Assembly: GCA_964602975.1 (NCBI GenBank) | Contig: CAZRTH010000002.1 | Location: 7,668 to 71,667 of the forward strand | Source: an uncultured Candidatus Saccharibacteria bacterium | GTDB lineage: Bacteria; Patescibacteriota; Minisyncoccia; Phycocordibacterales; JBBTRF01 | DNA: 64,000 nucleotides | Direction of reading: 5' to 3' | Shown here: in pieces, positions 1,597 to 26,775 of the stretch | Layout: each line of letters starts with the position of its first letter | How positions within the stretch are numbered: position 1 is the stretch's first letter | Program-made: the position numbers and the translations under genes | The notes under the pieces: model-generated | The model's database searches: none | The model's input: only the letters and a program-made list of their open reading frames with translations | Told to the model about the DNA's origin: nothing

Positions 1597-1603
1597 TAGG
1601 GGG

Positions 1604-4402: not shown

Positions 4403-4439
4403 GTCACACCGTCGCCATTACCCATTTCTCCCCGAATCA

Positions 4440-6401: not shown

Positions 6402-6485
6402 CCCAAACAGCATTTCTTTAATATTTCTTTATTGTTTCTTGATACTTTCTTTGCGATTTCTTGATCACCTATCTGTTAGAGTATC

Positions 6486-6983
6486 TTGGTGATATCCGAA
6501 AAGGAGTACAACTACGCTTTTGTAGACATGCAAAATATTATTTGCGGTGTCGAAAGGCTTGGTTGGCTCGTTGATTTTGAAAAACTATTTAAATACCTTT
6601 CGTACAAGCACCGTGCCGTGAGAATCTTCCTATTTGTGGGGTATGTGGAAAAATTTTCTCGTTCCTACAGATTCCTGGAGAAAATAGGTTATTTAATTTG
6701 TTACAAGCCAGTAGTTGTTGATAATCTTGGAAGGCCAAAGGCAAATATTGATGCAGATATGGTACTAAAGGCTGTCCTAGAAAAAGAAAATTATACGAAA
6801 GCAATTATTTTGAGTGGCGACGGAGACTTCTATTCGCTAGTGGCATATCTTTTCCAAGAGAACAAGTTGGAAGTTGTGCTTTGCCCGAGCATGCAAGCCT
6901 GTTCGAGTCTACTGAAACGTCACGCGCCTGGGCACATTACAGACATGTCGAGCTGTCGGAATCAAATTTCGTTGGCCACATAA
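6486..6983 (+). CDS. NYN (LabA-like) domain protein, predicted RNase
   Basis: 'YAFVDMQNI...' N-terminus and 'ILSGDGDFYSLV' Asp-rich motif typical of NYN/PIN-like fold; start codon uncertain (TTG at 6486 or ATG at 6528). Confidence 0.6.
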   Translation: MVISEKEYNYAFVDMQNIICGVERLGWLVDFEKLFKYLSYKHRAVRIFLFVGYVEKFSRSYRFLEKIGYLICYKPVVVDNLGRPKANIDADMVLKAVLEKENYTKAIILSGDGDFYSLVAYLFQENKLEVVLCPSMQACSSLLKRHAPGHITDMSSCRNQISLAT

Positions 6984-7107
6984 ATGAAAAAGCACCGCAT
7001 GGACACGCAGTACTCATGAAGGGCTTTTTCCTCGTTTCCGACACTAGTAATGATAACAATCATAGGTACTGGAGTCAACTTTTCTCTGTTCTGTTATACT
7101 TATCTTC

Positions 7108-8541
7108 ATGAACGATCAAGTGAAAACTCCGCGGATCACATTTTATGGTGGGGTGGGGGTAGTGACTGGGGCAAATTTTTTGCTTGAGACGATCGATGCT
7201 GATAGCGGCACAGCGAGTGGAATGTCTGCCGGCAAGCGCATTCTAGTGGACTGCGGCCTTGAGCAGGGTTCGCCTGAGTCGGCGCGGCGCAATCGCAAAG
7301 CCTTTGAATATGATCCGGCCGCGATGGACTATTTGTTCATCACGCACGCGCATCTCGACCACGTCGGCCGCATCGGCAAATTGGTGAAGGACGGTTTCCA
7401 GGGCATCATCTATTCGACACCAGAAACAAAGGCATTGGCCGAGCTCATCATGGACGATGCGGTCGGCTTGTTGGCGCGAGAGGCCCAAAGAGACGGCGTG
7501 TTGCCGCTGTATGAGGCCAAAGAGGTGACCAAGGCACTGAGTCTCTGGAAGACGATCGAATACCATACTCATTTTCAGGTGTGTGCGGGCGTGGAGGTAT
7601 TTCTGCGCGATGCCGGCCACATCCTCGGTTCGGCCATGATCGAATTCAAGATACAAACAACGTCCGGAGAATCCCGCAAAGTGCTTTTCACCGGCGATCT
7701 TGGCAACTCACCAACGCCCTTGCTGAAGGACACTGAGTCGATCGAAAGTTCCGACGCGGACTATCTCATAATGGAGAGTGTATATGGCGATCGAAACCAC
7801 GAGCCGGCACATGAGCGAAAAGAGAAGCTGAGAAGGGTGATCAACGAAACAGTGAAGCGCCGCGGCGTGGTGGTCATTCCTGCTTTTTCGATCGAACGGA
7901 CACAGGTGATCCTATACGAATTGAACAATTTGGTGGATTGCGGACAGATTCCGAGCGTTCCCGTATATGTCGATTCGCCGCTGGCGATAAAAGCCACCGA
8001 TGTATATAAAAGATCGACTCGTTTTTTCAATACGGAAGCCCAGGCCGATGCGAATGAAGGTGATCATCAGCTTTTCAACTTTCCTCGGCTCAAATACGTG
8101 CCGACCAACGAGGGATCTCGCGCGATCGAAAATATGCCAGGTCCGAAGATCATCTTGGCTGGTTCCGGAATGTCCGCTGGAGGACGGGTGATCCATCATG
8201 AATCCGAGTACCTGCCCGATGAAAAGAATACGATCTTGTTGGTCGGCTATCAGAGTATCGGCACGCTGGGCAGGCAATTGCTTGATGGTCACAAGACCGT
8301 GAGGATCAACGATCGCGATGTTCGCGTGAAGGCGCACATCGAAACGATCTATGGATATTCGTCACACAAAGATTCAGATCATCTGGTGGAATTTGTCGAG
8401 GAGGGCGTTGATTCGTTGAAAAAAGTGTTCGTGACGATGGGGGAACCAAAAGCTTCACTGTTTTTGGTACAGAAGCTGCGGGACAATGTTGGAGTGGATG
8501 CGATTATGCCGGAAAGGGCGACTCCGTACGAAATCGTCTAG
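7108..8541 (+). CDS. beta-CASP family MBL-fold ribonuclease (RNase J/CPSF-like)
   Basis: Metallo-beta-lactamase motif 'FITHAHLDHVGRIG', later 'FTGDLGN' and C-terminal His-containing beta-CASP-like motifs; 477 aa. Confidence 0.7.
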   Translation: MNDQVKTPRITFYGGVGVVTGANFLLETIDADSGTASGMSAGKRILVDCGLEQGSPESARRNRKAFEYDPAAMDYLFITHAHLDHVGRIGKLVKDGFQGIIYSTPETKALAELIMDDAVGLLAREAQRDGVLPLYEAKEVTKALSLWKTIEYHTHFQVCAGVEVFLRDAGHILGSAMIEFKIQTTSGESRKVLFTGDLGNSPTPLLKDTESIESSDADYLIMESVYGDRNHEPAHERKEKLRRVINETVKRRGVVVIPAFSIERTQVILYELNNLVDCGQIPSVPVYVDSPLAIKATDVYKRSTRFFNTEAQADANEGDHQLFNFPRLKYVPTNEGSRAIENMPGPKIILAGSGMSAGGRVIHHESEYLPDEKNTILLVGYQSIGTLGRQLLDGHKTVRINDRDVRVKAHIETIYGYSSHKDSDHLVEFVEEGVDSLKKVFVTMGEPKASLFLVQKLRDNVGVDAIMPERATPYEIV

Positions 8542-8543
8542 GC

Positions 8544-8888
8544 TTATTTTACCTTCTCAACCACTCGCTTGAAAGTCTCAGGATGGAATTCGGCGAGATG
8601 CGCCATGATCTTTCGGTCGACTTCGATATTCTGCTTCTTCATCGCGCCGACAAATTTGCTGTATGAAAGGCCCATTGGGTCGAGTGCGGCGTTCATCTTC
8701 ACGATCCACAAGCGTCGCATCACGCCCTTCTTGTCGCGTCGGTGTGCGAAGGCGTATGAGCCGGCATGAGAGATCGCCTCGTACGCCATTCGCTCCTTGG
8801 TGCTTCGGCCAAATCGATAGCCCTTGACCTGCTTGAGGACATTCTTTCGGGTCTTTAGGGCGTTTGTTGCTTTCTTTACGCGTACCAT
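8544..8888 (-). CDS. rplT: 50S ribosomal protein L20
   Basis: 'MVRVKKATNALKTRKNVLKQVKGYRFGRS...RRLWIVKMNAA' aligns to L20 (MARVKRG...KKILK.AKGY...R.LWI.RINAA). Confidence 0.9.
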   Translation of the reverse strand: MVRVKKATNALKTRKNVLKQVKGYRFGRSTKERMAYEAISHAGSYAFAHRRDKKGVMRRLWIVKMNAALDPMGLSYSKFVGAMKKQNIEVDRKIMAHLAEFHPETFKRVVEKVK

Positions 8889-8925
8889 TGGGGTGTTGTT
8901 ATGCTTGTGTGGGTTTTAATAAAAT

Positions 8926-9126
8926 TTAGCGTCCGAGAGCGGCGTTGCCGCCGAGGAAGCGAGCTCGCGACTTGTTGGTCATGATGATCGAACCCATTCG
9001 GTTCTTCTTCATCTGGGAACGTCGTCGCTCCTTGGCATTGAAGTGGTTGTGACCTTTGCCTCGAGCGAGGACTTTGCCCGCTTTGGTGACTTTGAGGCGC
9101 TTGGTGTATGACTTGTTGGGTCGCAT
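8926..9126 (-). CDS. rpmI: 50S ribosomal protein L35
   Basis: 66-aa very basic protein between infC and rplT in the conserved infC-rpmI-rplT order; 'KVTKAGKVLARGKGHNHFNAK' L35-like. Confidence 0.75.
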   Translation of the reverse strand: MRPNKSYTKRLKVTKAGKVLARGKGHNHFNAKERRRSQMKKNRMGSIIMTNKSRARFLGGNAALGR

Positions 9127-9180
9127 GGGATTGATATTAAAATTCGATGTTATGTTTGTTTTTGTGTGTTTGGCGTTTCG

Positions 9181-9726
9181 CTATTTCTTCTCGATGATGA
9201 CAGTGAGGCCTTTCAGAGCCTTCTTCGGCGCTTCGGCGATCGTGTACTCCTCGGTGATCAGCTTGAGGATGCGCTCGAGTCGCTCTTTCAGGAAGTTGAA
9301 TTCCATGTACTTCGAGCGGCCGGTGAGGAAAAGGTCGATCTTGATCCGATGCCCCTCCTTCAGCCATTCCGATGCCTTTTTCGCTTTCAATTCAAGGTCG
9401 TGCTCGCCGGTGCCGATCTTCACTTGGACTGTCTTCACTTCGATGACGTGGGCTTTCGCCTTTGCCGCCTTGAGCTTCTTGTTCTGATCGTACTGAAACT
9501 TTCCGTAGTCCATGATCTTGGCGATCGGCGGGACTGCGCTCGGAGAGATTTCGATGAGATCAAGGCCTGCTGCCTGGGCTTTGTCGAGAGCGTCCTTCAG
9601 GGAAATGACCCCAAAGTTCTCTCCGACAGGCCCGATGACGCGAAGCTCCGCGACTCGAATTTGATGATTTATCCTGTGATTTACGGTGCTCACGATGTAT
9701 GAAGTAACCCAGCATTTATAGCACAA
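9181..9726 (-). CDS. infC: translation initiation factor IF-3
   Basis: 'INHQIRVAELRVIGPVGENFGVISLKDALDKAQAAGLDLIEISPSAVPPIAKIMDYGKF' aligns with E. coli IF3 '[59 protein letters not shown]'; true start probably a non-ATG codon slightly downstream of the ORF-track Met (alignment begins ~15 residues in). Confidence 0.85.
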   Translation of the reverse strand: MCYKCWVTSYIVSTVNHRINHQIRVAELRVIGPVGENFGVISLKDALDKAQAAGLDLIEISPSAVPPIAKIMDYGKFQYDQNKKLKAAKAKAHVIEVKTVQVKIGTGEHDLELKAKKASEWLKEGHRIKIDLFLTGRSKYMEFNFLKERLERILKLITEEYTIAEAPKKALKGLTVIIEKK

Positions 9727-9791
9727 TAGCCCTTTTTACGCAATGTTTTGGCCGACAGGGCGATTTTTGCAGGGCGTATCGCCCAAACTCG

Positions 9792-10751
9792 TTATTTTGT
9801 GGCCGTTTCTAGCCATTTCATTAGGATACCAAAGTCTTTTTCGCGAGCATCGGAGCCGAGGATGATAAATACGACATTCCGGGAGCTGTCTTGGATAGGG
9901 AGGCGGAATAGGGAGATGAGCGTCTCGCCGGCGGCGGAGGTGTAGCCGGTCTTGCCCCCGAGAAAGCGCGGATCGTTCACGAATAAATTGATATTTTGCA
10001 GGTCGCGATAGACCGGACCGTCGGTGGCGGCATAGACAGTGGCAGGCTGGCCGGCCAATCGACCGCCATCGAGCATCACTGTTTTTTGGCGAGTCTTGGT
10101 GACGGTCAAAATATCCGGTTGCAGATCCTTGACGCTTTTCGCTAGCAAAAGCAGGTCGTACGCGGTGGAACGATTTTGGCCCGAAAGTCCGGAGGGGTCG
10201 GCGAAGGCGGTGTGGGTCATGTCGAGCAGGGCAGCTTGGCGATTCATCTGCGAGACGAAGTAGCCGACATTGCCGAGGCCGTCATAGATGCCGGCGATCT
10301 GGTCGGCGGCAACATTGCTCGACTCCATCAGCAGGGGATAGAAGAGTTCTTGTACGGAGGAAGGCGCACCGGCTCGGAGGGCAGTGAGTGCGGTCACCAA
10401 TTTGGTGAGCGAAGCGATTGGCAGCTGGAGGGCGGGCTGACGGCTGACAAGCACTTGGCCGGTATCGACATCAGCGACGAGGAAAGCGGTGGCAGTGATT
10501 TTTTGTGGTCGACCAACTTTCTTGCTGATCAGAATATCAGGTTTGTCGAGCCACTGGAGTTTTGGTTTGGAGGCGGAGTCGATGACAGTGTTTGTGGCAA
10601 CAGTGCGATTGGCGGTGTCCGATGGAGGCGTGAGACGATCGAGGCCGGCTTGTACGACGAGAGAGGCAACAACGATGATACCCGTCCATTTGGCGGTGAA
10701 GAGAATGCCTTCAGTGTCGAGGCGACGAGGACGTGAATAGAGAGGATCCAC
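9792..10751 (-). CDS. D-alanyl-D-alanine carboxypeptidase (PBP5/6, peptidase S11 family)
   Basis: N-terminal TM/signal, 'AFLVADVDTGQVL' and SxxK active site 'IASLTKLVTALTA', later 'SAN' and 'KTG(YT)' like motifs. Confidence 0.75.
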   Translation of the reverse strand: MDPLYSRPRRLDTEGILFTAKWTGIIVVASLVVQAGLDRLTPPSDTANRTVATNTVIDSASKPKLQWLDKPDILISKKVGRPQKITATAFLVADVDTGQVLVSRQPALQLPIASLTKLVTALTALRAGAPSSVQELFYPLLMESSNVAADQIAGIYDGLGNVGYFVSQMNRQAALLDMTHTAFADPSGLSGQNRSTAYDLLLLAKSVKDLQPDILTVTKTRQKTVMLDGGRLAGQPATVYAATDGPVYRDLQNINLFVNDPRFLGGKTGYTSAAGETLISLFRLPIQDSSRNVVFIILGSDAREKDFGILMKWLETATK

Positions 10752-10857
10752 GGGATAATGATAGCATGGGGTAAAGGCATGTCTTGCTACCGAGGAAAGT
10801 CATTCTGGGATACAATAAGAGGTATTACGCCACGTATTTAGTTTATTTTTCTCCGCT

Positions 10858-12003
10858 ATGAAACACGAGAGTGAAGCGACAGCATCTGGAGGTCAAGGAG
10901 AGGCGATAGTTAAAGACGCAGATCTCCCTGAATCGGAATTCGAGCTGGGTTTTGAAGAGATCGCTCGGTCAAAGACAAAAGTGACTGAGGGGAGAAACAA
11001 GGTGCCTGCTGGGGAAGTTTTCCTTGTTAGGCCATGGGAGGACTACACCCTCGTTGCTTTGAAAGATAAGCCCTCTCTGGCCATATATGACGAGCACGGA
11101 GCCATGATCGAGAATTTCAAGGAAAACGGGCTTCTGCATAAAGGTGATACCAACTGGGCTAGCCTTATAAGAAGTTGTGGAGGAGGATCATATCTTCTGG
11201 ATAGTCTTGGAGCGCAGGGTTCACGAGACACATTAGCTTTTGATCAACTGGAGACTTTCCTGAAATGGCCTCTGCGTGAATACAACATTCGATTCAGTAC
11301 AAGTCTTTCGGACATACAGAGGGCCCTCGGTAGTGACCAATCTGTTGAAAAAGGATGGAAGTATCAGTCATTTGATAACGGGAAATATCTCCTCTGTATT
11401 GATCCGGAAACTAAAATCTTCTTCGGATACATAACAGAAAATGACAGAGGCATTCGGCTTGCTCCGAAAGACTGGAAGAAAATAGACTTCACCGCCAAGA
11501 GTAATACGTTACCTAAGGATTTTGTAGCGCATATCGAAAAAACGCTACAGCAAACCGATGACTTCAAAGAACTTAACGCGAAGTATGGCGCGATCATTAC
11601 CGATATTGGCATCAATATCATCGATAGTGCAAATCCTTCTGGCGCCCCCGTCTTTAAAGACCTCGTCCCATCTGTTGCTTCAAATATCACAGTCGACCCG
11701 AGCAACCCTGATACGGTGTATTACTGCCAGAGCGGCAATCCAAGGGAGATCACTCGGCTCGATATGACTGGCGATCCGACCAAGTGGCAGACGCGGTCGG
11801 CGGCTATTCCGAAGCAATACGGTGCGATCAAAAACCTCCAACTTGACCCAACCGGCTCATATTTCCTTCTCTATACTCAAACCGCGCTGGTGATGCTTGC
11901 AAAAGAGACACTCGAGGAAATCAAAGAAGTTCCCGGTCTCAAAGAGGCCAATTTTGACTCCCAAGGCCGCGTCCGAGCCGTGGCAAGGACGGTTATTTGG
12001 TGA
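10858..12003 (+). CDS. hypothetical protein, first gene of MoxR-vWA-TGase/Ubl block
   Basis: 381-aa ORF, stop overlaps the TTG/GTG start of next gene; no recognisable domain. Confidence 0.45.
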   Translation: MKHESEATASGGQGEAIVKDADLPESEFELGFEEIARSKTKVTEGRNKVPAGEVFLVRPWEDYTLVALKDKPSLAIYDEHGAMIENFKENGLLHKGDTNWASLIRSCGGGSYLLDSLGAQGSRDTLAFDQLETFLKWPLREYNIRFSTSLSDIQRALGSDQSVEKGWKYQSFDNGKYLLCIDPETKIFFGYITENDRGIRLAPKDWKKIDFTAKSNTLPKDFVAHIEKTLQQTDDFKELNAKYGAIITDIGINIIDSANPSGAPVFKDLVPSVASNITVDPSNPDTVYYCQSGNPREITRLDMTGDPTKWQTRSAAIPKQYGAIKNLQLDPTGSYFLLYTQTALVMLAKETLEEIKEVPGLKEANFDSQGRVRAVARTVIW

Positions 12004-14732
12004 CATATGCCGTAGACACAAGCGGCTTGGCTCAAGTGATGGAGAGAAAGAGGATTGCACGCCTAACACAAGGAGTAAATGCAACGGACCTTTTCAGGAT
12101 CGATGATCTGAAAAAGAAGGGAGGAAAAACTGCGGTTGAAAAAGAGAAGGATCTCATTCCGGTAAAAGAAAAAATGGAGCGCGATGTTGCGCCTGCTTTG
12201 GAATCTCTGGATACGCTCGAGCACGCGGCGAATTTCAGAAAGCAGCTGGAAGAATTGCGCCGACAGCTCCGTCAGCAGGGTCTCGCCAACGATGAAGTCG
12301 TTTTTGTAACAGAAGGGATCGAGGCTTCAGTCAAAGAGAAAGAGAAGCAATTTGTCTCAAAAGAAACGGTGCCGATGCTTGAGTCAATTGAAAAAGGCTT
12401 GGCAGCTGGGTTGTCTCTATCGACCGCTGTCATCCTTCGAGCGGATCTGGATCGGCTGAAGGCCACCGAGCTGTTAATGGACGACACTGTCCGAGGTAGG
12501 TACCATGCGTTGGTCAATACATTCAACTTGGCATATCAGGAATTATTCCAGCGAGAGGGAAGCAAGATCATCGAAGAGGTTCAGGGCTTGCTGAAAGGGA
12601 TACGAACACAGCTGGATGCGATCACCAACAAAAATGGTTTTGATGATTGGATGGAGTTTCGACTACCACAATATAAGAGCCGGCTTGGAGAGATGCTTCG
12701 CGACTGTCCGATCACAGCGGACGATGCATACAGGGCGATATCCGGAGCTCGTACTGAGTTGCAGACCATTGCGGCTGAATATCAGAAAAAGTTTGAGGAA
12801 GAATACGCGAAGGTTCGGGAGAAAGCTGCGGGACGAGTAGATGCGGTCGTTGTCGATCTGGAGGGGGATATTGCTGCTATTGTCAAAAGGCTTCAAGACA
12901 AAAATTTCAAGGATCGAGCTGCCGCCGAACAGTATCTTTCAAGTAGCGAAGCGAGGAGGGTTTTGGAGAGTGAGATTCAAGCTCTCGCTTCAGATCAGCC
13001 CGATATTGCCGAGGAGCTCAAGCGAGCACTCAGAGTCCAGATCTCAAATAGCCTGTCGGCCATTGAACGTGGCGCGCAACTCAATATCGCAGAGACCGGT
13101 CAGCAGATGGTACTTTTTGGCAAGACCACTTTCCCTAAGTGGGAGGCAAAGGTGAAGGAGAAGAGGAAGAGGGCTGTGAGCCTCACCTTCGAGACCGATG
13201 AGAGAAGCCATGGTCCCGGAGTGAAGCCTGATCAGATCCAAGGTGACGTCGTGTTTGCGGTGACAGACCAGAAAGGAGAAAAGAACAAGGTCGGTCCATA
13301 TGAAGGGTGGACAGATGAGCATGAGTGGCGCCTCGGTCTTCATGCTCTACGAGGTCAGAGCACCCCGCCTTCATATATGACCGCGGAGGAGTTTCGAAAT
13401 GTGAAAAAACAATACAGCGCTTGGGAAAGCGGAACGCTCAAGAAGGAGTATGAGACTCGACGCCAAGAGCTTGCTACTATCTACGCCACTCGCGAGAAGG
13501 TGGGAAAGCGTAGTGCTGATAAAGAAACCCTTTGGAAGACAATGTATCAAGCAAAGCTGAGGGACCATGCTGAGTTTCTTGCCAAGAATCACATCAGTCT
13601 GTTTCGGCGCGCGGATGCCGTAAGAGAGAGTGACGAGGTGGATACGAACGGCAAGGGATTCGTGCCAAGCTGGCAAAGCCACTGGGTTGTCGATCCTGAT
13701 ACGGAATATAACCTCGAACGAATGGCAGAAACATTCAAGATGCAGCTCGACCTGAGGGAAGGTGTACTCAATCTCGATGGTCATGCCGGTACAGGAAAGG
13801 ACGTTCTCATGAAAATGTTCAGTAATCGAACAAATCGACCATACTTCAGCACCGATTGTACGAAGTGGACCACCGAGTACGAACTTTCTGAAGACGTTGT
13901 GCTTGAGGCAAAGGACGGAGCAACCCAGACGATCAAGGTACCGAGCGCTGTTTTGAACGGCATCCAGACCCCAGGAGCGCTGGTGTATTTCAATGAGGTG
14001 AACGGCATGCCTGAGCAAGCGCAGATCTTCCTGCATGCCCTATGGGACGAAAAGCGATCTTTGACCCTCAAGACCAGCTCTGGAAAGGTGGTGAAGGCTC
14101 ATCCGACCGTACTTTTTGCAAGCTCAAAGAACCCTGGGTATCCTGGTACCTTCGACCCACAGTTTGCGACCAAGAGTCGTATGGTATCGATGGAGATCGG
14201 CTATCCTTCACTGCACACTATCGCCAAGCCGGAGGACAAGAATCCAAACAAGCCATTTAATTCATCCGAGGCTCTGCGTATCGCCCGCGAAGTCAGTTCG
14301 TTGTCAGACATGACCTTTGAACCGAACATGGACAGGAACGAATTTGTACAAATGTGGGATAGCCACGTGAATGGCATCAAAAATGGTGCTCCAAAGCCAA
14401 GCGCTGTCCAGGAGTTCGATATCAAGACCATTCTCGCGTTAGTACAGTTTGGCACCAAGCTTCGCGAAAACTTCAAATTGAACTTTGAGAAGAGCCGAGA
14501 TGCTCGCAACGCTCTCCCTGTCCATCAGCCACTGACCTCTCGCGAGTTGCGCAGGGCTGCATATGGACTCTCCAAGACTCCTGTTGATGAAAAGATCAAG
14601 GGCAATCCCGATACCACAGCTCGTGAGCTTCTGGAGCGTTTCTTCCTGAGCCACATCGATAAGACCGAGGATCGCGAGAAGATCAAAACGGCGATGGCGA
14701 CCTGGCGTTCTCAAAAGAGGGTAGCCGCTTAA
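11997..14732 (+). CDS. MoxR/AAA_5-family AAA+ ATPase with long N-terminal coiled-coil region
   Basis: C-terminal half: 'LNLDGHAGTGKDVLMK' (Walker A-like, Lys present but Asp in place of Thr/Ser), 'ALVYFNEVNGMPEQAQIFLHALWDEKRSLTL' (matches MoxR 'DEINRA.P..Q.ALL.A..E'), 'TVLFASSKNP' (ATQNP-like), 'FDPQFATKSRM', 'IGYPS'; N-terminal ~550 aa charged/coiled; start is TTG at 11997 or GTG at 12000 overlapping upstream stop. Confidence 0.6.
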   Translation: MVTYAVDTSGLAQVMERKRIARLTQGVNATDLFRIDDLKKKGGKTAVEKEKDLIPVKEKMERDVAPALESLDTLEHAANFRKQLEELRRQLRQQGLANDEVVFVTEGIEASVKEKEKQFVSKETVPMLESIEKGLAAGLSLSTAVILRADLDRLKATELLMDDTVRGRYHALVNTFNLAYQELFQREGSKIIEEVQGLLKGIRTQLDAITNKNGFDDWMEFRLPQYKSRLGEMLRDCPITADDAYRAISGARTELQTIAAEYQKKFEEEYAKVREKAAGRVDAVVVDLEGDIAAIVKRLQDKNFKDRAAAEQYLSSSEARRVLESEIQALASDQPDIAEELKRALRVQISNSLSAIERGAQLNIAETGQQMVLFGKTTFPKWEAKVKEKRKRAVSLTFETDERSHGPGVKPDQIQGDVVFAVTDQKGEKNKVGPYEGWTDEHEWRLGLHALRGQSTPPSYMTAEEFRNVKKQYSAWESGTLKKEYETRRQELATIYATREKVGKRSADKETLWKTMYQAKLRDHAEFLAKNHISLFRRADAVRESDEVDTNGKGFVPSWQSHWVVDPDTEYNLERMAETFKMQLDLREGVLNLDGHAGTGKDVLMKMFSNRTNRPYFSTDCTKWTTEYELSEDVVLEAKDGATQTIKVPSAVLNGIQTPGALVYFNEVNGMPEQAQIFLHALWDEKRSLTLKTSSGKVVKAHPTVLFASSKNPGYPGTFDPQFATKSRMVSMEIGYPSLHTIAKPEDKNPNKPFNSSEALRIAREVSSLSDMTFEPNMDRNEFVQMWDSHVNGIKNGAPKPSAVQEFDIKTILALVQFGTKLRENFKLNFEKSRDARNALPVHQPLTSRELRRAAYGLSKTPVDEKIKGNPDTTARELLERFFLSHIDKTEDREKIKTAMATWRSQKRVAA

Positions 14733-14741
14733 CACCTGTCT

Positions 14742-17700
14742 ATGAAATCACCGGAGGATCATTCTGAAAGCGTCCCGAGATCGAACAAGAAACATGTTCG
14801 AGAAATGGTCTTTCTCGCCGAACAGGCAAAGGAAGGCGCATTGAAAGTGCTACCAGGAAAGGCTTGGGCACAGCATTTTCCTGTTCCTGCCGAAGAACGC
14901 AGAGAGATCCTTCAGGGAGTTCTCGATGGAAAAGTGAAGCCGCAAGACGCAGAATCAAAGGTCACTCCAGACGCCTTGGTCTATGACGCCGCTGATCTCG
15001 ACAGGGAGGGTTTGGATGGAGTGAGCTCACGAATCTTTGATGAATCGGCGACGGTACAGTACTACGACTACCCGAGATTTACCAAGTTTGTCTCGGAGAT
15101 GAAGGGTACGAAGATCTCTGTCGGGGATTGCGAAAAGCTCTACGGAGCGATCACAAAAGCGAGGACTCAGAAAAAGCTCAGAGATGCTTTTGGAACTACA
15201 GGGCAAGGGCAGCTTGATGGTGTGTTGGTACGTGACGCGAAGGCGATCGTCAGGACCATCGATACCCTTCCTCCGACAGAAAAAGTCTTGCAAGCTCTCA
15301 AGTTGGATTGGCTCTGTAGAGATAGGGGAGCGATCGGGACGCTTGAGCGAGATGAGGTAGTGTCGAAACTTTCCGGTAGCGAAAGAGAGTTATTCAAGAA
15401 GCTCTCCACCGGGTACCGTCAGTACGTCGATCAGGGAGATGAGGCAGGGTACAAGGAATTGTTGGAAGGTATACGTGACAATCACTCTCTTGTTGAAGAG
15501 AAGAAAGAGGCATCTGATGCTCCGAGTGACAGCATGCAGAAGCTTGAGGAAGAGATCGAAGAGTACAAGAAGGATACCGGAAATCCCGGCACTCCAAACG
15601 ACCCAGCTATCCCTCCCGAAGACGCGGACGAGTATCATACGCCGGAAGGAGGGTCACCGGAACAGCCAGAACAAAGCGGTCCTTCCCAAGAGCAACAGGA
15701 ACAAAGACCGATTTTTGAGATCGAGCCACCTCTCGGCGGCTATTATGCTGGTGGGCGAAAAAGCTACTATGATCGCACGAGAAAGACTTGGAGCAAGAAG
15801 AAGCAGTTGAGCGAGTACGCCGGAGTACTTTCAGCATCAGGACGTCACACGCTTTCTGGCAAGACCGACAGAGGAGTGAAATCACTCGCTATTCCGAATA
15901 GTTATGCGTTGGACGCGGTATCTGTGAAATACACCGGCTCCAAACCGAGACTGCACCGTGACCAGAATGGCTGTTTCTATATCGAGACAGATGGACCGTC
16001 GACTTTCTCGGTTGAATTTGCCAAGGAAGACAAGCTGTTCACCGGACCAGTGGTGGCAGAGGATACAGAAAAACTGTACGCAGGAGCCCTTTCCACTGAA
16101 AGTGAAACTTTGTTGCAGGCATTGCAAGGTAATGCAATGAATAAGGCAGAACAGGTGCGTCAGCATATTCTAGCGAATCACTTTTATCCCGGCGGCGGAG
16201 ACTTGGGTGCGGCTCAGGCTGTCCAAGCGAAGCTCCGCCATGAATCAACTCCGGATGCTTATATTCAAAATATCGATAAGGCAGAATATCTGGAATGTTA
16301 CTCCTCGAACACTCTTTTTGTGGCGATGATCCGACAGGCTGGCATACCGGCTCGTCTCGTGATTGGTCACAAGGTAGAGGGTGCTCGCGATGGAAAATCA
16401 GCCATAACAGAGTCTACCGGACATGCATGGTCTGAAGTCTGGGACGGTGGCAAGTGGGTGAGATTTGACGCAACGCCCGCTCCGAAGCCAGAGGACAAGA
16501 AAAAAGACAATAAAGAAAAGGAGGATGATGCGGAAAAGGAAAGCGCTCCTGAGGCGAAAGACAATGGAAAGGAGGCTCCGCAGAAGGAGCAGGAAAAAGG
16601 AGGGACTCCGTCTGATGAGGAAAATGGCGAGTCGAAAGAGCAGGGGGAAGCTAGTGATTCTGATGTCCAGGAAGGCGAAAATAGTGTCCAACAATCAAAA
16701 GAAAAGCTCGAAAAGGACGCCGCTGAAAAAGAAAAGCTCGAAAAGAAACTCGAAAGCGAGAATTCATTCGAAGATCTAGAAAAAATAAAAGAGGAAATAC
16801 AACAGGCCGACCTTTTGGATGATATGCAGAAGGAGCTTGATGAAAAAGTCGAAGCAAAAGAAGAGCAAATGAAGGAATCCATCAAGGATGAACTTGATAA
16901 GATGGTGAAGGACGGTTTCTTGGATGAGGAAAAGAGAAACGAGCTGGAACAGAAGCTTCTTGAGGAAGATGCTGCTGAATTGGATCGTTTGAGAGAGCAG
17001 CTTGAACAGGAAAACTCACTCTACAACGAATATGAGAATATCCGTGATGAAGTGATGCCGCTGGTGGATAAGTGGTTTGAATTTTTTGTAGAGCGCTTGC
17101 CTCGAGAGCAGAATGTCGATGTGGATGAGGATTCTTTGACCCGCCAGGGCGTGTTCAATCGAAGGTCGGTGAACAAGGCGCGAAATTTGTTGTTTGGATC
17201 GATCAAGAATCCCCGTATCATCAAGTCATCTGTAAAGCCATTGTTCATGAGCTCGATCCTTGTCGATGTGAGCGGTTCGATGGCGGGAGAGAAGCTGCAG
17301 AATGCCCGGAAGCTCCTAGTCTTCTATTCTGAATTGTTCACAAAGATCAGCGAAGAATTCGGCTACATCCGATTTTCCATAAATACATTCTCTGATAGAG
17401 TGAACGAGATCAAAGCTTTCGATCAGGATTATTCCGCGACCCAGAGTTACCTTTTCCCTGACAATTCACGCTCGACGGTGAAATTCCGTCTCATGAACAA
17501 TGTTACCGCGCTAGGCGGCACGAACATGCTTGATTCAGTGAAGAAGGCGGCAGCTGATCTTAATCGAGAGACGCACGATTTTCCTGATTATGCATCGGCA
17601 TTCTATTTTGTTGGCGATGGAGAGGATACCTGTGGCAATTCTGGCAATGTGAGTAGCTTTTTGCAGACAAATGATGCCGAGAGGGGATTTGGCGATCACA

Positions 17701-17867
17701 TGAGATCAGCGATCATGCTGGGAACCGAGAGCCAGAAGGCGATTTTGGCGAATATTTTTGGTGAGGAGCATACTACCGTAGCTCCAGATCTCGATTCTCT
17801 GATCGAGGAGAGTATGCTTCGTTTCAACGATGATATTGAAGCGTATATGAACATGAAGACGGGGTAG
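14742..17867 (+). CDS. transglutaminase-like cysteine protease domain + acidic low-complexity/coiled-coil linker + C-terminal von Willebrand factor A (vWA) domain
   Basis: TGase core 'AEYLECYSSNTLFVAMIRQAGIPARLVIGH' (Cys ~16296-16298), 'GHAWSEVW...GKWVRFDATP' (His, Asp); vWA MIDAS 'ILVDVSGSMAG' (~17265), 'ALGGTNM', 'FYFVGDGEDT'; ~170 aa of Lys/Glu/Asp-rich low complexity between. Confidence 0.7.
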   Translation: MKSPEDHSESVPRSNKKHVREMVFLAEQAKEGALKVLPGKAWAQHFPVPAEERREILQGVLDGKVKPQDAESKVTPDALVYDAADLDREGLDGVSSRIFDESATVQYYDYPRFTKFVSEMKGTKISVGDCEKLYGAITKARTQKKLRDAFGTTGQGQLDGVLVRDAKAIVRTIDTLPPTEKVLQALKLDWLCRDRGAIGTLERDEVVSKLSGSERELFKKLSTGYRQYVDQGDEAGYKELLEGIRDNHSLVEEKKEASDAPSDSMQKLEEEIEEYKKDTGNPGTPNDPAIPPEDADEYHTPEGGSPEQPEQSGPSQEQQEQRPIFEIEPPLGGYYAGGRKSYYDRTRKTWSKKKQLSEYAGVLSASGRHTLSGKTDRGVKSLAIPNSYALDAVSVKYTGSKPRLHRDQNGCFYIETDGPSTFSVEFAKEDKLFTGPVVAEDTEKLYAGALSTESETLLQALQGNAMNKAEQVRQHILANHFYPGGGDLGAAQAVQAKLRHESTPDAYIQNIDKAEYLECYSSNTLFVAMIRQAGIPARLVIGHKVEGARDGKSAITESTGHAWSEVWDGGKWVRFDATPAPKPEDKKKDNKEKEDDAEKESAPEAKDNGKEAPQKEQEKGGTPSDEENGESKEQGEASDSDVQEGENSVQQSKEKLEKDAAEKEKLEKKLESENSFEDLEKIKEEIQQADLLDDMQKELDEKVEAKEEQMKESIKDELDKMVKDGFLDEEKRNELEQKLLEEDAAELDRLREQLEQENSLYNEYENIRDEVMPLVDKWFEFFVERLPREQNVDVDEDSLTRQGVFNRRSVNKARNLLFGSIKNPRIIKSSVKPLFMSSILVDVSGSMAGEKLQNARKLLVFYSELFTKISEEFGYIRFSINTFSDRVNEIKAFDQDYSATQSYLFPDNSRSTVKFRLMNNVTALGGTNMLDSVKKAAADLNRETHDFPDYASAFYFVGDGEDTCGNSGNVSSFLQTNDAERGFGDHMRSAIMLGTESQKAILANIFGEEHTTVAPDLDSLIEESMLRFNDDIEAYMNMKTG

Positions 17868-17995
17868 AAGTGTACTTTTCGCCGCGCCTCCAAAATCTTG
17901 ACTTATGGCCATATAATATGGTAATAAGTGTTGGTAGAACGGTGCATGTGCATCGGTCAATTTGAACCTTAACAATCAAACGGAGGAATTATCGT

Positions 17996-19489
17996 ATGTT
18001 CGCTATTCTCACGCGGATCCGGAGCTGGTTTGAGCGTTTGCTCGGCCAAGACCTCGAGCCGCTGAAAGAAGGTTTTCTTTCGTGCGACTCAGCTCAGAAA
18101 CAGGGGTTGGTGATGACGAAGTTCGAGCTCGAGGTAAGGCCTCGCCGTATCATGGGTGTTCTGCCTGTGTTCGGAGTTCGAAAAGTCGGTTCGGTCTCAT
18201 TTTTCGACGCGGTCAAAGCCCCCATTCGGTCTTCTCTCGCTTCGTTGAGTCATGAGTTGCGCCAAGTCCCTCGACGTGTCCATGATGCGGCCGAAAAAGG
18301 CCTCAAAATTGGAACCGAAAAAGCTGTTGATCAGGCAAAGGCAAAATTGAATGTCGAAACACAAAAGCTCCTTCAGAAATTTGACGAATCGCACCTTTCC
18401 GGGCTCATCAAGTCCGACAGGAATGTCTTTCGTCAAAAGCTTCTCGAGGCCCTCAGTGATCAGGCATCGCAAGTATTTGCCACTGCCACAAAGAAGCATC
18501 TGGCCGAACTCGTCCTGCGCATCCGACAAGAAACATCAGTTTCCGATTCATCGAGTGTCTCCGATGACAATGTCGCTTCATTGCCACTGCCGACCGGCAC
18601 ACGTTTCGTGTTCAGGAAAGGCAAGATGACCACGTTTGTCATCGAGCAACCGCCTCAAAAGCGCACGCTGAAAATCATGAATGAAGGTGGCGATAGATCG
18701 GAGATGGTTCAGTTGGCGCTGCCTTACGTCGTGTTCTTCATCGTCCTGCGCGGTCGCAGATCCGACAAGGCATACGTGCTCTTTCGGAAAGCTCCGCTGC
18801 GAAGCGTGAGAGACGAATTACTCTGCCCAGCTCTTCCCAACATCTTCGGAGACTTCAGCGTTTGTTTTGCTCCATCGGCAGCTAGGGACACCCTGGCAGA
18901 GATGGCGGAAGAATCGATCGCTAGCTTCTGGGGCGGCAGGTTTATCAAAACCGAAGTCGTCACCGAGGCTCACAGGAGGACCCCTATCGAAGATTGGGCT
19001 GAAGGGTCGAGAAAAGACTCCTTGTTTGGCATATCACATCCGTGGATGTCGGCCAAACAGAGTGTTGCAAGCATGATGGAGAAGATCAGCGCTGAATTCG
19101 TTGCTGATACCATTGCTGGCCAGAAAAAAGAAAAAGGCGGCAAGGAGATCGCTTCCGCGCTCGATGCGGCTGTCACCGCGCTTGCGACTAAGATCGAGAA
19201 CGAAATGAAAGAGACCTGCTTCAAGCTCGTTCCTTCATGGAACCTCGATCCGACGGTCCTTGCTCAAACAAGTGCAGGGTTCAAGCAGTCTGTCGCTGAG
19301 GTATGCACTGTAATTAAGGCGCAGCTTGGCGAAAAGATCGAAGGAACCTTGTCGAATGAGGCCTTGGAAGGAGCTCTTGAAGCAGCAATCCAACAAACGA
19401 TCGCCTCGATGAATGCGGACATGGACAAGCCGATGGCGGCCGCTCGCGAAGCGTTCTCCGCGATTCTTAAAGAAAAGGAGGCAAAATGA
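17996..19489 (+). CDS. candidate E2/UBC-like ubiquitin-conjugating-enzyme homolog (hypothetical)
   Basis: Motif 'LLCPALPNIFGDFSVCFAP' (Cys codon 18863-18865) resembles UBC active-site 'HPNI...G.IC(L)' spacing; preceded by predicted beta-strand stretch; gene stop overlaps JAB gene start (ATGA); RBS GGAGG upstream. Confidence 0.4.
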   Translation: MFAILTRIRSWFERLLGQDLEPLKEGFLSCDSAQKQGLVMTKFELEVRPRRIMGVLPVFGVRKVGSVSFFDAVKAPIRSSLASLSHELRQVPRRVHDAAEKGLKIGTEKAVDQAKAKLNVETQKLLQKFDESHLSGLIKSDRNVFRQKLLEALSDQASQVFATATKKHLAELVLRIRQETSVSDSSSVSDDNVASLPLPTGTRFVFRKGKMTTFVIEQPPQKRTLKIMNEGGDRSEMVQLALPYVVFFIVLRGRRSDKAYVLFRKAPLRSVRDELLCPALPNIFGDFSVCFAPSAARDTLAEMAEESIASFWGGRFIKTEVVTEAHRRTPIEDWAEGSRKDSLFGISHPWMSAKQSVASMMEKISAEFVADTIAGQKKEKGGKEIASALDAAVTALATKIENEMKETCFKLVPSWNLDPTVLAQTSAGFKQSVAEVCTVIKAQLGEKIEGTLSNEALEGALEAAIQQTIASMNADMDKPMAAAREAFSAILKEKEAK

Positions 19490-20166
19490 CCCCGATTCAT
19501 CTCAAAAAGACAGACGGTGCGAAGCAGTCTCCTGAGACGACCCATTACATTGCGGCCAGAAATGGTCTCTTCCTTCAAAAGAAGATGTGGTGGGTGGATG
19601 CTACGGTGCCTGTGGCTGAGGCGAGCAAGCTCAGGGTCCAACACCCTTCAGCGAGATTGCTTCTGCCTAAGCTTCCCGTAGAGATCTTGGCCCAAGCTCT
19701 GAAACTTGCGAAAGCAGTATACGACGTTTCCAAAAGCGAAGTATGTCTGCTCTTGCACTATGATGAGAAAACGGGCTATCAACTCACCGTTCCAGTGCAA
19801 CTAGTCACGCCCTTAAGCGTCGACTACAACGCTTCACAACGGGTGCCAGGAGCGCTCTGTGTAGGAACTATCCACTCGCACGGTAAGCTGCACGCGTTTC
19901 ATTCCGCCACCGACCATGCTGATGAAGAGACTGCAGATGGCGTCCATGTAACCCTCGGGAGCTTGGATGTGTATCCGCGATTCTCTTTGTCGGCAGAGAT
20001 GGCGATCAACGGGACGAGATTCCCCGTTGAGACTCAGTGGTTCGAAGGACTGGTTCTCGAACAAGAACGCATCTATCGTATCGATTGGCCGGCCATTGAT
20101 TCGTGGGAGGTTCCGCGGAAATGGCTCGATGTCGTCGAGCACAGGAAAGGAACACCATGGCCATAA
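19486..20166 (+). CDS. JAB/MPN (JAMM) metallopeptidase, deubiquitinase-like
   Basis: Canonical JAMM motif 'E...HSHGKLHAFHSATD' (HxH-x7-S-xx-D) with upstream Glu ('KSEVCLL'). Confidence 0.7.
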   Translation: MTPIHLKKTDGAKQSPETTHYIAARNGLFLQKKMWWVDATVPVAEASKLRVQHPSARLLLPKLPVEILAQALKLAKAVYDVSKSEVCLLLHYDEKTGYQLTVPVQLVTPLSVDYNASQRVPGALCVGTIHSHGKLHAFHSATDHADEETADGVHVTLGSLDVYPRFSLSAEMAINGTRFPVETQWFEGLVLEQERIYRIDWPAIDSWEVPRKWLDVVEHRKGTPWP

Positions 20167-20867
20167 AAGTGATCGGTCTCGGCGGTATCGGTAGTCAGTT
20201 GATATCGCCTCTGTGCCGCTACCTTGATTCGCAGAAGGACGGCAGCATTCAGATCGTCGTCATCGACGGCGACGCATACGAAGCCAGAAATGCCGACCGC
20301 CAGGAATTCTTGGATGTCGGCAATAAGGCTGAAATTACGGCTGCTCGGATGAGGCGGGATTTACCCGGTCTTCTCATCGAGGCGAAGCCTGAATACGTGA
20401 CGGAGGAGAACGTGTTCTTCATGATCAACAACGGCGATATCGTGTTCCTGGGGGTAGACAACCATGCTACTCGGAAACTCGTGTCCGACCGCTGTCGAGA
20501 ATTGGAGGACGTGGCGCTCATCTCCGGCGGGAATGAGCTGATCGACGGCAACGTCCAGATCTATCTCCGCATTGGTGGCAAGGAACTATCGGCCCCGATC
20601 ACGTATCTCCACCCGGAGATCGAACATCCGCGAGATCGGAATCCCGCGGAAATGAGTTGCGAAGAGCTCGCTTCGAGTGGAGTTCCACAGCTGATCTTTA
20701 CCAACTTGACCGCGGCCGTCCTTATGCTCTCAGCATTTCGAATGGTTGGCGCGGTCTTGGCAGGAAAGGGAAAGTTGATATACTCGGAGCAGTTCTTCGA
20801 TGTAGAAACCGGTAACGTCCTGACCTTCTTGCGCAAGCCAGAAGGTCATCACAGAAAGGCAACATGA
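20157..20867 (+). CDS. E1-like (ThiF/MoeB/ubiquitin-activating) adenylyltransferase
   Basis: Rossmann 'VIGLGGIGSQL' and 'VVIDGDAYEARNADRQ' (ThiF 'D.D.V..SNLNRQ' motif); ATG at 20157 with AAAGGA RBS, overlaps JAB gene end by 10 nt. Confidence 0.7.
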   Translation: MAIKVIGLGGIGSQLISPLCRYLDSQKDGSIQIVVIDGDAYEARNADRQEFLDVGNKAEITAARMRRDLPGLLIEAKPEYVTEENVFFMINNGDIVFLGVDNHATRKLVSDRCRELEDVALISGGNELIDGNVQIYLRIGGKELSAPITYLHPEIEHPRDRNPAEMSCEELASSGVPQLIFTNLTAAVLMLSAFRMVGAVLAGKGKLIYSEQFFDVETGNVLTFLRKPEGHHRKAT

Positions 20868-21139
20868 CAGAAACGACGACAACACCCGATGGCAGCGCGC
20901 AGCCTCCAGTGCTGGACGCGCCCAGTGTGCAGATCCAGTGTGGCGCCAACAGCCAGAGCATCACGCTCGGCGATGGCGAAGTCCTGACAGTGGGGAATGT
21001 GCGCGAGCGCCTCGGCGACGTGCTCAACCTCGCCCCCACTATGCTCGCCGTTATCGGTGACGAAACAGTGGACGACGACCGCGCCCTCCGGCCCGGAGAA
21101 ACGCTCCAGTTCATCAAGCAGTCCGGGACGAAGGGCTAA
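20864..21139 (+). CDS. ubiquitin-like beta-grasp protein (ThiS/MoaD-like), C-terminal Gly
   Basis: 91 aa; 'VQIQCGANSQSITLGDGEVLTVGNVRERLGDVL...MLAVIGDETVDDDRALRPGETLQFIKQSGTKG*' matches ThiS/MoaD pattern ending in Gly; start overlaps E1 stop (ATGA). Confidence 0.5.
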   Translation: MTETTTTPDGSAQPPVLDAPSVQIQCGANSQSITLGDGEVLTVGNVRERLGDVLNLAPTMLAVIGDETVDDDRALRPGETLQFIKQSGTKG

Positions 21140-21191
21140 CTTATCGGCCACCGCACTCGGCTTCCGTGATGCTGATTCGAAAACGCAACTC

Positions 21192-21221
21192 GGCCTCCTT
21201 TCGGGGAGGTCGGGTTTTTTG
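21192..21221 (+). terminator. rho-independent terminator after Ubl gene
   Basis: 'GGCCTCC-TTTC-GGGGAGGTC' hairpin followed by 'GGGTTTTTTGTTTGGG'. Confidence 0.5.
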
Positions 21222-21518
21222 TTTGGGAAAAGATGGGTAAATAAAAACAGCAACCAGCCACGATGTGGGGGTTGCCATTCGTCGGCGCTTGTTCAGTGCC
21301 TCCTCCGGCGAGCTTTCCGATGGGGTCGCCTGGGAAGGCTTTGATCTCGCACCTCTTCGACGAGAATGTGCTTGTCTACTTGGCACTTGGTGCATGAGCA
21401 GACAAATGAGACGCCGTCTCCTCCGTTGCATTCCGCATGTTTCCCTGATTGGCAGGGGCCACATGACCGTTGTTGCATGATCGTCCTTTCTTCTTTTTGT
21501 TTGGGGACTGGCGGTGAC

Positions 21519-21968
21519 TCAGAGGCTCATTCGATAGCTGTTCGTCTCACGGATCGTGAAGCCTAGCTTTTTGTAGAGGGCGTTGGCGGCGACACGGCTT
21601 GGGTTCGAGGTGAGATCGAGATGGCTTAGTGAGCCGGGATAGCTGCGGGCTTTTTCGATCAGGCGAGTCATTAATGCTTCGCCGATCTTTTGTCCGCGAT
21701 ACGCATCGTCGACGACCACGTCTTCGATCGTTCCGGAGCTATACAGCGCGGTATGTCGATAGAGAAGCAGGGCCATGCCGACGATCTTGTTCGGGCTGTC
21801 TGTGTCGCGGGCGACGCAGAGCACGCCGAACATCATGGCTCGACGGAGCTGGTTGGGCGAGAATTGCCTTTGGGGCGAGAGCTGGGAGAGGAGCGAGGCG
21901 ATTTGTAGCACCTCGGCTTCGCTGAGCTCGCTGAATGTTTCAATAAAAGAGTAGGTGATGGCGGGCAT
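21519..21968 (-). CDS. GNAT family N-acetyltransferase
   Basis: 'VVVDDAYRGQKIGEALMTRLIEKA' (motif A, Q/R-x-x-G-x-G/A) and 'ANALYKKLGF' motif B; start placed at internal Met (MPAITYSF) because the longer ORF would run through the ssrA terminator/3' end. Confidence 0.65.
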   Translation of the reverse strand: MPAITYSFIETFSELSEAEVLQIASLLSQLSPQRQFSPNQLRRAMMFGVLCVARDTDSPNKIVGMALLLYRHTALYSSGTIEDVVVDDAYRGQKIGEALMTRLIEKARSYPGSLSHLDLTSNPSRVAANALYKKLGFTIRETNSYRMSL

Positions 21969-22189
21969 AAGAAAGAGCTTTCGGTGAGGGTGAGGCTCGC
22001 GTATCGAGCCGCTGTATCCAAGGTACAGTTTAAATGGGAGGGAGTCAATTGTTGGTGAGTAATTGGTCACAGATAATTTCCTCGCCGACGCTCGGAAATT
22101 TCCGCGACCCCGCCTCGCGGTTCGGCCTGCTGTCCTCACATCCGCTCCGGCTTTCAATTCCTGCCTCCATACTTCCAAACAAAAGAAAA

Positions 22190-26699: not shown

Positions 26700-26775
26700 G
26701 CGCCCGTAGCTCAGTTGGTAGAGCAGGTGTCTTATACACACCTGGCCGGGGGTTCGAATCCCTCCGGGCGCACCA
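26700..26775 (+). tRNA. tRNA-Ile (anticodon UAU, decodes AUA), CCA encoded
   Basis: Cloverleaf: acceptor GCGCCCG/CGGGCGC, D-arm GCTC-AGTTGGTA-GAGC, anticodon stem GGTGT/ACACC with loop C-T-TAT-A-C, T-arm GGGGG-TTCGAAT-CCCTC, ACCA end. Confidence 0.7.

Follow-up and report, generated by a model that had tools for sequence, protein, structure and literature searches.

A candidate ubiquitin-like conjugation cassette of the 6d/PRTRC type in a Candidatus Saccharibacteria contig and on uncultivated phage contigs

We analysed a 64,000-nucleotide stretch of contig CAZRTH010000002.1 from an uncultured Candidatus Saccharibacteria bacterium (GenBank assembly GCA_964602975.1; the whole stretch is called the window here) and found in it a four-gene operon on the forward strand, at 17996-21139, that encodes an E2-like protein, a JAB peptidase, a ThiF-type E1 enzyme and a small β-grasp ubiquitin-like protein (Ubl), in that order, before a terminator. 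This E2-JAB-E1-Ubl unit is probably a self-contained, translationally coupled Ubl-conjugation cassette, and sequence comparison assigns it to the 6d/PRTRC superfamily that goes back to Iyer, Burroughs and Aravind (2006). Successive genes overlap, by 4 nucleotides (ATGA) between E2 and JAB, by 10 between JAB and E1, and by 4 (ATGA) between E1 and Ubl. An earlier note on this DNA had described a JAB-E1-Ubl triplet. All three genes are present, including the 91-residue β-grasp Ubl and the overlaps of 10 and 4 nucleotides, but the unit is in fact a quartet, the 497-residue E2-like gene at its head having been overlooked. The identity of the four domains, the invariance of their catalytic-type residues, the structure of the operon and its conservation are direct observations.

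The same four genes stand in the same order in eight chromosomal loci (L001, L003, L005, L007, L009, the P0010 contig, L014 and L015) and in about 30 viral contigs, a recurrence that places the arrangement far beyond chance. The flanks of the eight chromosomal loci are unrelated, and those loci that carry an organism name belong to Patescibacteria. In L001, L003, L005, L007, L009 and P0010, the E2-like gene is followed each time by JAB, ThiF and an open reading frame (ORF) of 69-92 residues. By blastn, the closest relative, L005 (75-76% nucleotide identity), is syntenic with the window at 1338-10586 and again at 17898-22054; the gap at 10587-17897 therefore represents a 7.3-kb indel, and the cassette retains its own 98-nucleotide leader. 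Downstream, synteny with L005 stops soon after a GNAT gene. The cassette is thus positioned between variable gene blocks. A sigma-70 scan upstream of the cassette found no canonical or convincing promoter.

The E2-like protein has 17 homologues, nearly all of about 495 residues with a few truncated entries, and the named ones are from Patescibacteria. A profile built on residues 193-378 and run over 1.84 billion proteins retrieved, at E ≤ 1e-3, 1684 cluster representatives. In an alignment of 143 diverse relatives of this domain, C290 is invariant and N282 nearly so; these two residues (Asn282-x7-Cys290) are as far apart as their counterparts in eukaryotic UBC enzymes. The Pfam family Prok-E2_D (PF14460) was matched by 35 of the 101 relatives scanned, with no other family recurring; one of them, P0055, reached 38.9 bits, and PRTRC system protein B is itself Prok-E2_D at 202 bits. 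A local hmmsearch linked the domain to the Alicyclobacillus E2D protein at 23.7 bits and to PRTRC-B at only about 5 bits. By these comparisons the central domain is a diverged member of the Prok-E2_D branch of the E2/UBC superfamily; as no direct or structural match was obtained for it, the assignment rests on transitive sequence links together with the motif. Neither an alignment of 15 sequences nor that of 143 contained an invariant or near-invariant His after C290. The N- and C-terminal helical regions vary across the family, and a Pfam scan of these extensions found no alpha-hel2 match.

The E1 and JAB motifs, which the earlier note had called textbook examples, are indeed present. The single-domain E1 carries GLGGIGS, R48-Q49 and D101, and its ATG start is common to all orthologues, which gives the 10-nucleotide overlap with the JAB gene. 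It aligns over its full length with the NCBIfam model PRTRC_ThiF (2-219 against 13-236 of 245) at 45.1 bits, below the cut-off of 144.75. When E1s of the window family were aligned with those of PRTRC cassettes and of Bacillus and Alicyclobacillus plasmids, 23 columns proved invariant, and the residues kept even in the PRTRC and plasmid enzymes include GxGGxG, R48-Q49, K57, D101 and C168. The only cysteines in the window E1 are 20, 113 and 168; there is therefore no CxxC motif and no rhodanese. The JAB peptidase has the full JAMM signature (E85, H130-S-H132, S140 and D143; nucleotides 19873-19914), and E85, H130, H132, S140, D143 and W36 are invariant in six loci, while Arg25 is found in the window and two others of the six. 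It scores 26.6 bits against Pfam Prok-JAB (E 5.8e-6), 20.6 bits against DUF2016 (E 3.8e-4, just under the 24.3 cut-off) and 47.4 bits against NCBIfam PRTRC_A over residues 18-176 (cut-off 101.8).

The AlphaFold model of the Ubl (pLDDT, the predicted local distance difference test, 79.5) shows a β-β-α-β-β-β topology preceded by disorder over residues 1-20, and Foldseek matched it to ubiquitin, NEDD8, TtuB and MoaD, all at probability 1.0. By sequence the Ubl has no Pfam match; Prok_Ub (PF14454) and NCBIfam PRTRC_C were not matched even at E up to 10, and hhalign to Pelobacter PRTRC-C aligned the 8-residue tail only. Its most telling part is the C terminus: all 15 Ubl homologues end in QSG[TS]KG, and a G-x-K-G tail is also found in L014, L015, the viral contigs and PRTRC protein C. 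The window Ubl stops directly after SGTKG, and PRTRC-C stops after GIKG in Tunicatimonas, GDKG in P. aeruginosa and GTKA, with Ala in place of Gly, in Pelobacter; within the L016/L019 set, the Cupriavidus protein continues as GAKG-AHAQI and the Burkholderia protein as GAKG-SHA. Because a few relatives have short extensions past G-x-K-G, that Gly is taken to be the reactive end, and because the stop codon directly follows it in every member of the window family, no trimming is needed. The claim of the earlier note that the Ubl ends in Gly and needs no processing is accordingly borne out, G-x-K-G being kept in all relatives examined and a minority adding 1-8 residues. The Thr-rich N-terminal extension that the note had singled out is real, but we rejected it as a defining feature: it is common only to the closest relatives and is one instance of an extension that ranges from almost nothing to about 60 residues in the chromosomal loci (about 60, and charged, in L015) and reaches about 90 residues or more in the viral contigs.

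A genome scan with E2-derived patterns returned only 2 species representatives, the patterns being narrow, and a viral scan with the same patterns returned nothing. The viral contigs come from a scan of IMG/VR with E1 patterns, which yielded 36 contigs; most of their E1s are 37-51% identical to that of the window, and two are more distant at 29% and 34%. Their viral status follows the IMG/VR classification and their flanks. With local hidden Markov models, the succession of E2 domain, JAB, E1 and Ubl was recognised on about 30 of these contigs. All 29 of 29 viral E2 domains retain the Asn and the Cys, and the viral Ubls end in LEF(L/V)KxxGxKG, with 1-8 residues past the Gly (C, YK, LL, LA or FEKMCFFY) in eight of them (L023, L034, L038, L039, L040, L045, L052 and L055). 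Every viral Ubl bears a long N-terminal extension. In L025 (Ubl at 6677-7390), the sole viral Ubl scanned against Pfam, the extension holds two Rho_N domains (HeH-type, nucleic-acid-binding) that precede the β-grasp core, and 21 other viral loci (22 in all) have N-terminal sequence similar to it. Locus L048 has two tandem, nearly identical Ubl genes (1491-1889 and 1949-2356) after E1.

On the viral contigs the cassette lies in a conserved block (about 1700-12600 per locus, L022-L055) consisting of a 323-residue protein, an E2 of about 800-900 residues, JAB, E1, Ubl and a second ThiF-like gene, and in about 30 syntenic contigs a gene for an RNA polymerase β'-like protein of about 900 residues follows 2-3 kb downstream. 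No protein of the cultured-phage collection exceeds about 29% identity to this β'-like protein, and the G+C content of the viral contigs is 23-37%. Among annotated sequences, the best tblastn matches of the window E1 are Firmicutes plasmid and phage cassettes, and the E2D-JAB-ThiF order was found on B. thuringiensis plasmid pAM65-52-3, Alicyclobacillus plasmid p1 and jumbo Bacillus phage vB_BauM_KLEB27-3. The relatives found outside these chromosomes are all on phages, plasmids or conjugative elements. In a neighbour-joining tree of E1, the window groups with five Patescibacteria-type loci; the sister of this clade mixes viral contigs with L014 and L015, which are chromosomal, and the outgroups are PRTRC and the Bacillus plasmid and phage sequences. 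Tentatively, we consider it possible that there is an unrecognised, deep Ubl subfamily with a K-G tail, common to Patescibacteria-type chromosomes and a diverse lineage of low-G+C uncultivated phages, in which the phages routinely carry a complete E1, E2, deubiquitinase and Ubl machinery for tagging host or viral proteins and the chromosomal copies are its source or a captured counter-weapon.

Table 1. Features of the cassette and positions in the window
Feature	Position	Strand	Description
Leader of the cassette	17898-17995	+	GGAGG ribosome-binding site at 17982-17986; blastn synteny with L005 resumes at 17898
E2-like protein, 497 residues	17996-19489	+	N-terminal helical, central Prok-E2_D-related and C-terminal helical regions
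Central E2 domain	18578-19120 (about residues 195-375)	+	AlphaFold2 pLDDT 80-93
Candidate catalytic Cys290	18863-18865	+	8 residues past Asn282 (LPN-x7-C)
JAMM/JAB metalloprotease, 226 residues	19486-20166	+	N-terminal JAB-N (DUF2016) domain
ThiF-type E1 adenylating enzyme, 236 residues	20157-20867	+	Single domain; Pfam ThiF E 4.4e-17
Candidate catalytic Cys168 of E1	20658-20660	+	In S-C-x-E loop; invariant
Ubl, β-grasp, 91 residues	20864-21139	+	Disordered Thr-rich residues 1-20, core 21-84, tail FIKQSGTKG, terminal Gly91
Intrinsic-terminator-like hairpin	21187-21226	+	13-bp stem then T run; operon end; terminator scan

From these features we infer the chemical steps, the nature of the target and the biological role of the cassette. 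The E1, probably as a homodimer, would bind ATP-Mg and adenylate the exposed C-terminal Gly91 of the Ubl, which would then be moved as a thioester onto the invariant Cys168 of the E1 and from there handed on to Cys290, the likewise invariant cysteine of the E2-like domain. The cassette encodes no E3; the variable helical regions of the E2-like protein may pick the target, and a lysine of that target is the most likely point of attachment for the Ubl. The Ubl would be removed again by the JAMM peptidase, which has a JAB-N domain and is probably a deconjugase. In relatives with residues past G-x-K-G this peptidase would also trim the precursor, a role suggested by the short extensions that their Ubls bear. 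Bacterial precedents for conjugation by E1, E2, JAB and Ubl exist in Bil and Bub (PMC10557695, PMC11601596). As for the biological role, our most likely guess is one in phage-host or mobile-element conflict, either as a Bil-like defence or as a captured phage function, because the distribution is sporadic, the surroundings are variable and the relatives outside the chromosomes are exclusively on mobile elements; this evidence is circumstantial.

Several results weigh against a conjugation cassette acting in such a conflict. The window E2-like protein has no direct match in Pfam, NCBIfam or PADLOC; its E2 profile gave 0 matches to PDB sequences; and a Foldseek search of the full-length 497-residue model against the PDB found no E2 and nothing significant, the best match being influenza PB2 at E 0.07. 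With hhalign, UBE2D2 aligned over the 14-residue Cys motif only and a single PRTRC-B sequence did not align at all. The modelled central domain also has six β-strands ahead of the Cys loop, the canonical number being four. For the proposed role, PADLOC matched no known defence-system model, and several of the cassette flanks are ordinary housekeeping genes. The literature that we searched held no biochemical or functional work on any 6d/PRTRC-type system.

A different reading of the same genes is that the Ubl is a thiocarboxylate carrier of the ThiS/MoaD/CysO kind, with the JAB releasing the product or processing the carrier, as in CysO-Mec+ and QbsE-QbsD, for cofactor, cysteine or thionucleoside synthesis. 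The earlier note had set this aside on the argument that sulfur-carrier operons have no JAB, which is incorrect: operons of ThiS/MoaD, JAB and E1 tied to sulfur metabolism are known (PMC1779556), so that adjacency of a JAB is no sound argument. The N-terminal 135-150 residues of the E1, moreover, score 47.6 bits on ThiF/MoeB models compared with 45.1 on PRTRC_ThiF, and both TtuB and MoaD are among the structural matches of the Ubl. The conclusion of the note is nevertheless supported, on other grounds. An E2-like gene with an invariant Cys always accompanies the cassette, the E1 has neither rhodanese nor CxxC, the tail of the Ubl is K-G and not G-G, and the cassette holds a conserved position on phage-like contigs. 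Cofactor-partner genes are absent, as the note had said: neither MoaE, ThiG, CysM or TtuA nor a rhodanese turned up in the chromosomal loci annotated with Pfam, the approximately 27 window ORFs or the few viral-flank ORFs scanned. In the tree, too, the window E1 groups with phage and plasmid E1s linked to an E2. It is the conserved E2-like gene with its invariant Cys, the E1 features and the lack of sulfur enzymes, and not the JAB, that make a sulfur-carrier role very unlikely.

We also consider it quite improbable that the E1 activates the Ubl for something other than protein tagging, such as ligation to a small molecule or lipid (compare Atg8-PE) or a C-terminal modification, with the E2-like protein as scaffold or carrier and the JAB as a recycling hydrolase. 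A protein target is hypothetical; no E3 is encoded in the window or the chromosomal loci; Foldseek gave no structural confirmation of the E2 fold; and ThiF-like enzymes are reported to perform diverse carboxylate activations (PMC12596934). However, an invariant Asn-x7-Cys in a Prok-E2_D-related domain is the signature of a thioester relay, the characterised Bil, Bub and Cap2 systems all modify proteins and likewise do so with no E3, and the variable E2 extensions look like protein-recognition modules. Rather unlikely, in our estimate, is the reading that keeps the same biochemistry and gives it to a mobile element or phage, as a captured or remnant module, now resident in the chromosome, that tags host or rival proteins to the advantage of the element, for example in take-over, anti-defence or control of nucleoid and transcription. 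The exclusively mobile relatives outside these chromosomes would fit this, as would the single syntenic position on about 30 viral contigs, beside the second ThiF-like and RNA polymerase β'-like genes, which makes the cassette look like a core function of the phages; in the E1 tree the window clade has the viral clade as its sister, chromosomal L014 and L015 are nested among viral E1s, and rve/HTH_23 genes adjoin the cassette in L014. By contrast, the window and L005 share a chromosomal position at 75-76% nucleotide identity and have a host-like G+C content of 52-56%, compared with 23-37% in the viral contigs, no integrase or phage structural gene lies near the cassette in the window, and six Patescibacteria-type loci form an E1 clade of their own, suggesting vertical residence. 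Conjugation of the Ubl to proteins remains our preferred reading.

The genes around the cassette were also inspected. Just upstream lie a gene for a 1041-residue protein with transglutaminase-core and vWA regions (14742-17867) and a MoxR-like AAA_5 gene; vWA-MoxR systems with Ubl modules have been described by Kaur et al. 2020, and the vWA region gave a weak PADLOC match to TerY. A functional link between these genes and the cassette was rejected, as they fall in the 7.3-kb indel relative to L005 and are absent from every other cassette locus. The AAA_5 and Transglut_core pair was likewise rejected as part of the cassette, being a widespread two-gene module of Patescibacteria that stands among housekeeping genes (L059, L061) and never beside a Ubl cassette. 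The AAA_5 gene itself is split: a 381-residue ORF (10858-12003) and a 911-residue AAA_5/MoxR-like ORF (11997-14732) are read as one gene with a frameshift near 11983-12003, because in many Patescibacteria lineages the orthologue is one protein of about 1285 residues; P0184 aligns in two different frames, with its residues 28-375 in the first and 377-1289 in the second. The frameshift could reflect a pseudogene, an assembly error or programmed frameshifting. Downstream, the window has content typical of Patescibacteria, with SmpB, FtsH, a type IV pilus cluster (PilM, PilO, PilB-like, PilC-like and prepilin peptidase), a release factor and FtsX, and a tRNA-Ile gene with anticodon TAT lies at 26700-26775. 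A scan of 20 flanking ORFs gave type IV pilus proteins, FtsX, a release factor, an M19 dipeptidase, a uracil-DNA glycosylase-family protein and others of this sort.

Other cassette loci have neighbours of their own. Just downstream of the cassettes in L005 (15060-17104), L001 (13236-16248) and L007 (13258-16220) are AAA_15/AAA_21 or SMC_N/AAA_23 ATPase genes with a small partner; these resemble defence-type ATPases, and the window has none. A DUF5672 gene, confirmed by Pfam, lies near the cassette in L003 (10745-11515) and directly after the Ubl gene in viral L040 (6980-7612); in L035 (6985-7605) DUF5672 is inferred from matching position and size. The proximity of DUF5672 may be coincidence.

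Bacterial ubiquitination-like pathways, namely CBASS Cap2, Bil and Bub, have recently been shown to be real conjugation systems that play roles in phage defence, and 6d/PRTRC is the branch for which the searched literature offers no experimental data. The presence of the cassette in Patescibacteria, which have tiny genomes and are episymbiotic, and in phages would extend Ubl tagging to a new part of the bacterial tree, and the conserved phage block would place such tagging on the phage side of the conflict as well. For the window Ubl, tryptic cleavage would fall after K90, and modified lysines would keep one Gly (+57.02 Da). As this mass is isobaric with over-alkylation by iodoacetamide, standard proteomics would miss or mis-assign the Ubl conjugates.

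Among known systems, the closest is type 6d, described in 2006 with a Ubl, a JAB bearing a JAB-N domain, an E1, an E2-like protein with no HPN histidine and an α-helical protein, with Pelobacter propionicus among its examples (PMC1779556); on plasmid pPRO1 of that species, a cassette is annotated as PRTRC. The latter name denotes a ParB-related, ThiF-related cassette of plasmids and integrative conjugative elements, covered by NCBIfam TIGR03735-03742 and by Pfam Prok-E2_D, Prok_Ub, Prok-JAB and DUF2016. The window cassette shares with 6d/PRTRC an E2 that has a conserved Cys and no HPN histidine (LPN in the window), a JAB with N-terminal JAB-N/DUF2016 and the conserved W36, a short rhodanese-free E1 that aligns end to end including the invariant Cys, and a small stand-alone Ubl with a conserved C-terminal Gly and a matching G-x-K-G tail. 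It differs in several respects. Neither the window nor the related chromosomal loci have ParB, PRTRC-E or PRTRC-F, which are present in the plasmid cassettes of Pelobacter, Cupriavidus and Tunicatimonas, and no chromosomal locus of the window family has a separate α-helical (alpha-hel2) gene. The 6d gene order is Ubl-αhel-E2-E1-JAB, as opposed to E2-JAB-E1-Ubl in the window, where the E2 is 497 residues long with large helical extensions and lacks the absolutely conserved His C-terminal to the Cys that was reported for 6d (PMC1779556). E1 identity to PRTRC is only 23-24%, all four window proteins fall below or outside the curated models, and the window cassette is chromosomal, in Patescibacteria.

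The Firmicutes plasmid and jumbo phage cassettes share the E2-JAB-E1 order, a Prok-E2_D E2 and a PRTRC_A-like JAB, but their E1s are 29-35% identical to that of the window and an extra gene of 526-559 residues lies upstream; on the Alicyclobacillus plasmid (L010, 4952-5893), Prok_Ub is fused to the N terminus of the JAB, between the Prok-E2_D and ThiF genes. BilABCD resembles the window cassette in having a separate Ubl, E2, JAB deubiquitinase and E1 with no E3, and for Bil a thioester relay to lysine has been demonstrated (PMC10557695, PMC11601596). Its order is Ubl-E2-JAB-E1, however, its E1 is multidomain (IAD-AAD-CYS) whereas that of the window is a single 236-residue domain (PMC11601596), and its Ubl requires pre-processing by the deubiquitinase whereas the window Ubl already ends in Gly; neither Pfam nor PADLOC gave a Bil sequence-family match for the cassette. 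The Bub system (6E/DUF6527) has a DUF6527 serine protease and an E1 and E2 that lack catalytic cysteines and use oxyester chemistry; DUF6527 was not matched in the window cassette by Pfam, and C168 of the E1 and C290 of the E2 are instead invariant. In type II CBASS (Cap2/Cap3), an E2-E1 fusion accompanies a CD-NTase, whereas the window has separate E2 and E1 and no nucleotidyltransferase, and the PADLOC 'E1-E2' models matched the nucleotide-binding region of the E1 only weakly (E at least 1.5e-3). The sulfur-carrier operons that do contain a JAB (CysO/Mec+/MoeZ and QbsE/QbsD) likewise have JAB, E1 and a small β-grasp protein side by side, and rows 4b-4d of Table 1 in PMC1779556 tie ThiS/MoaD, JAB and E1 operons to cysteine synthase and sulfate assimilation. 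In those operons, the E1 has a rhodanese or sulfur-metabolism enzymes lie adjacent, and there is no E2; the window is the opposite in these respects, and its Ubl has a K-G tail.

Patescibacteria or phage versions of the cassette were not found in the searched literature, and its E2 and Ubl are invisible to current Pfam models. Bioinformatic descriptions of the 6d operon type and of the component families date from 2006, and the reduced E2-JAB-E1-Ubl form, resident in Patescibacteria chromosomes and conserved as a block in a lineage of large uncultivated phages, appears not to have been described previously. Compared with the systems above, it is a stripped-down 6d/PRTRC cassette of four small coupled genes with no Ubl processing, which makes it an attractive minimal system for reconstitution.

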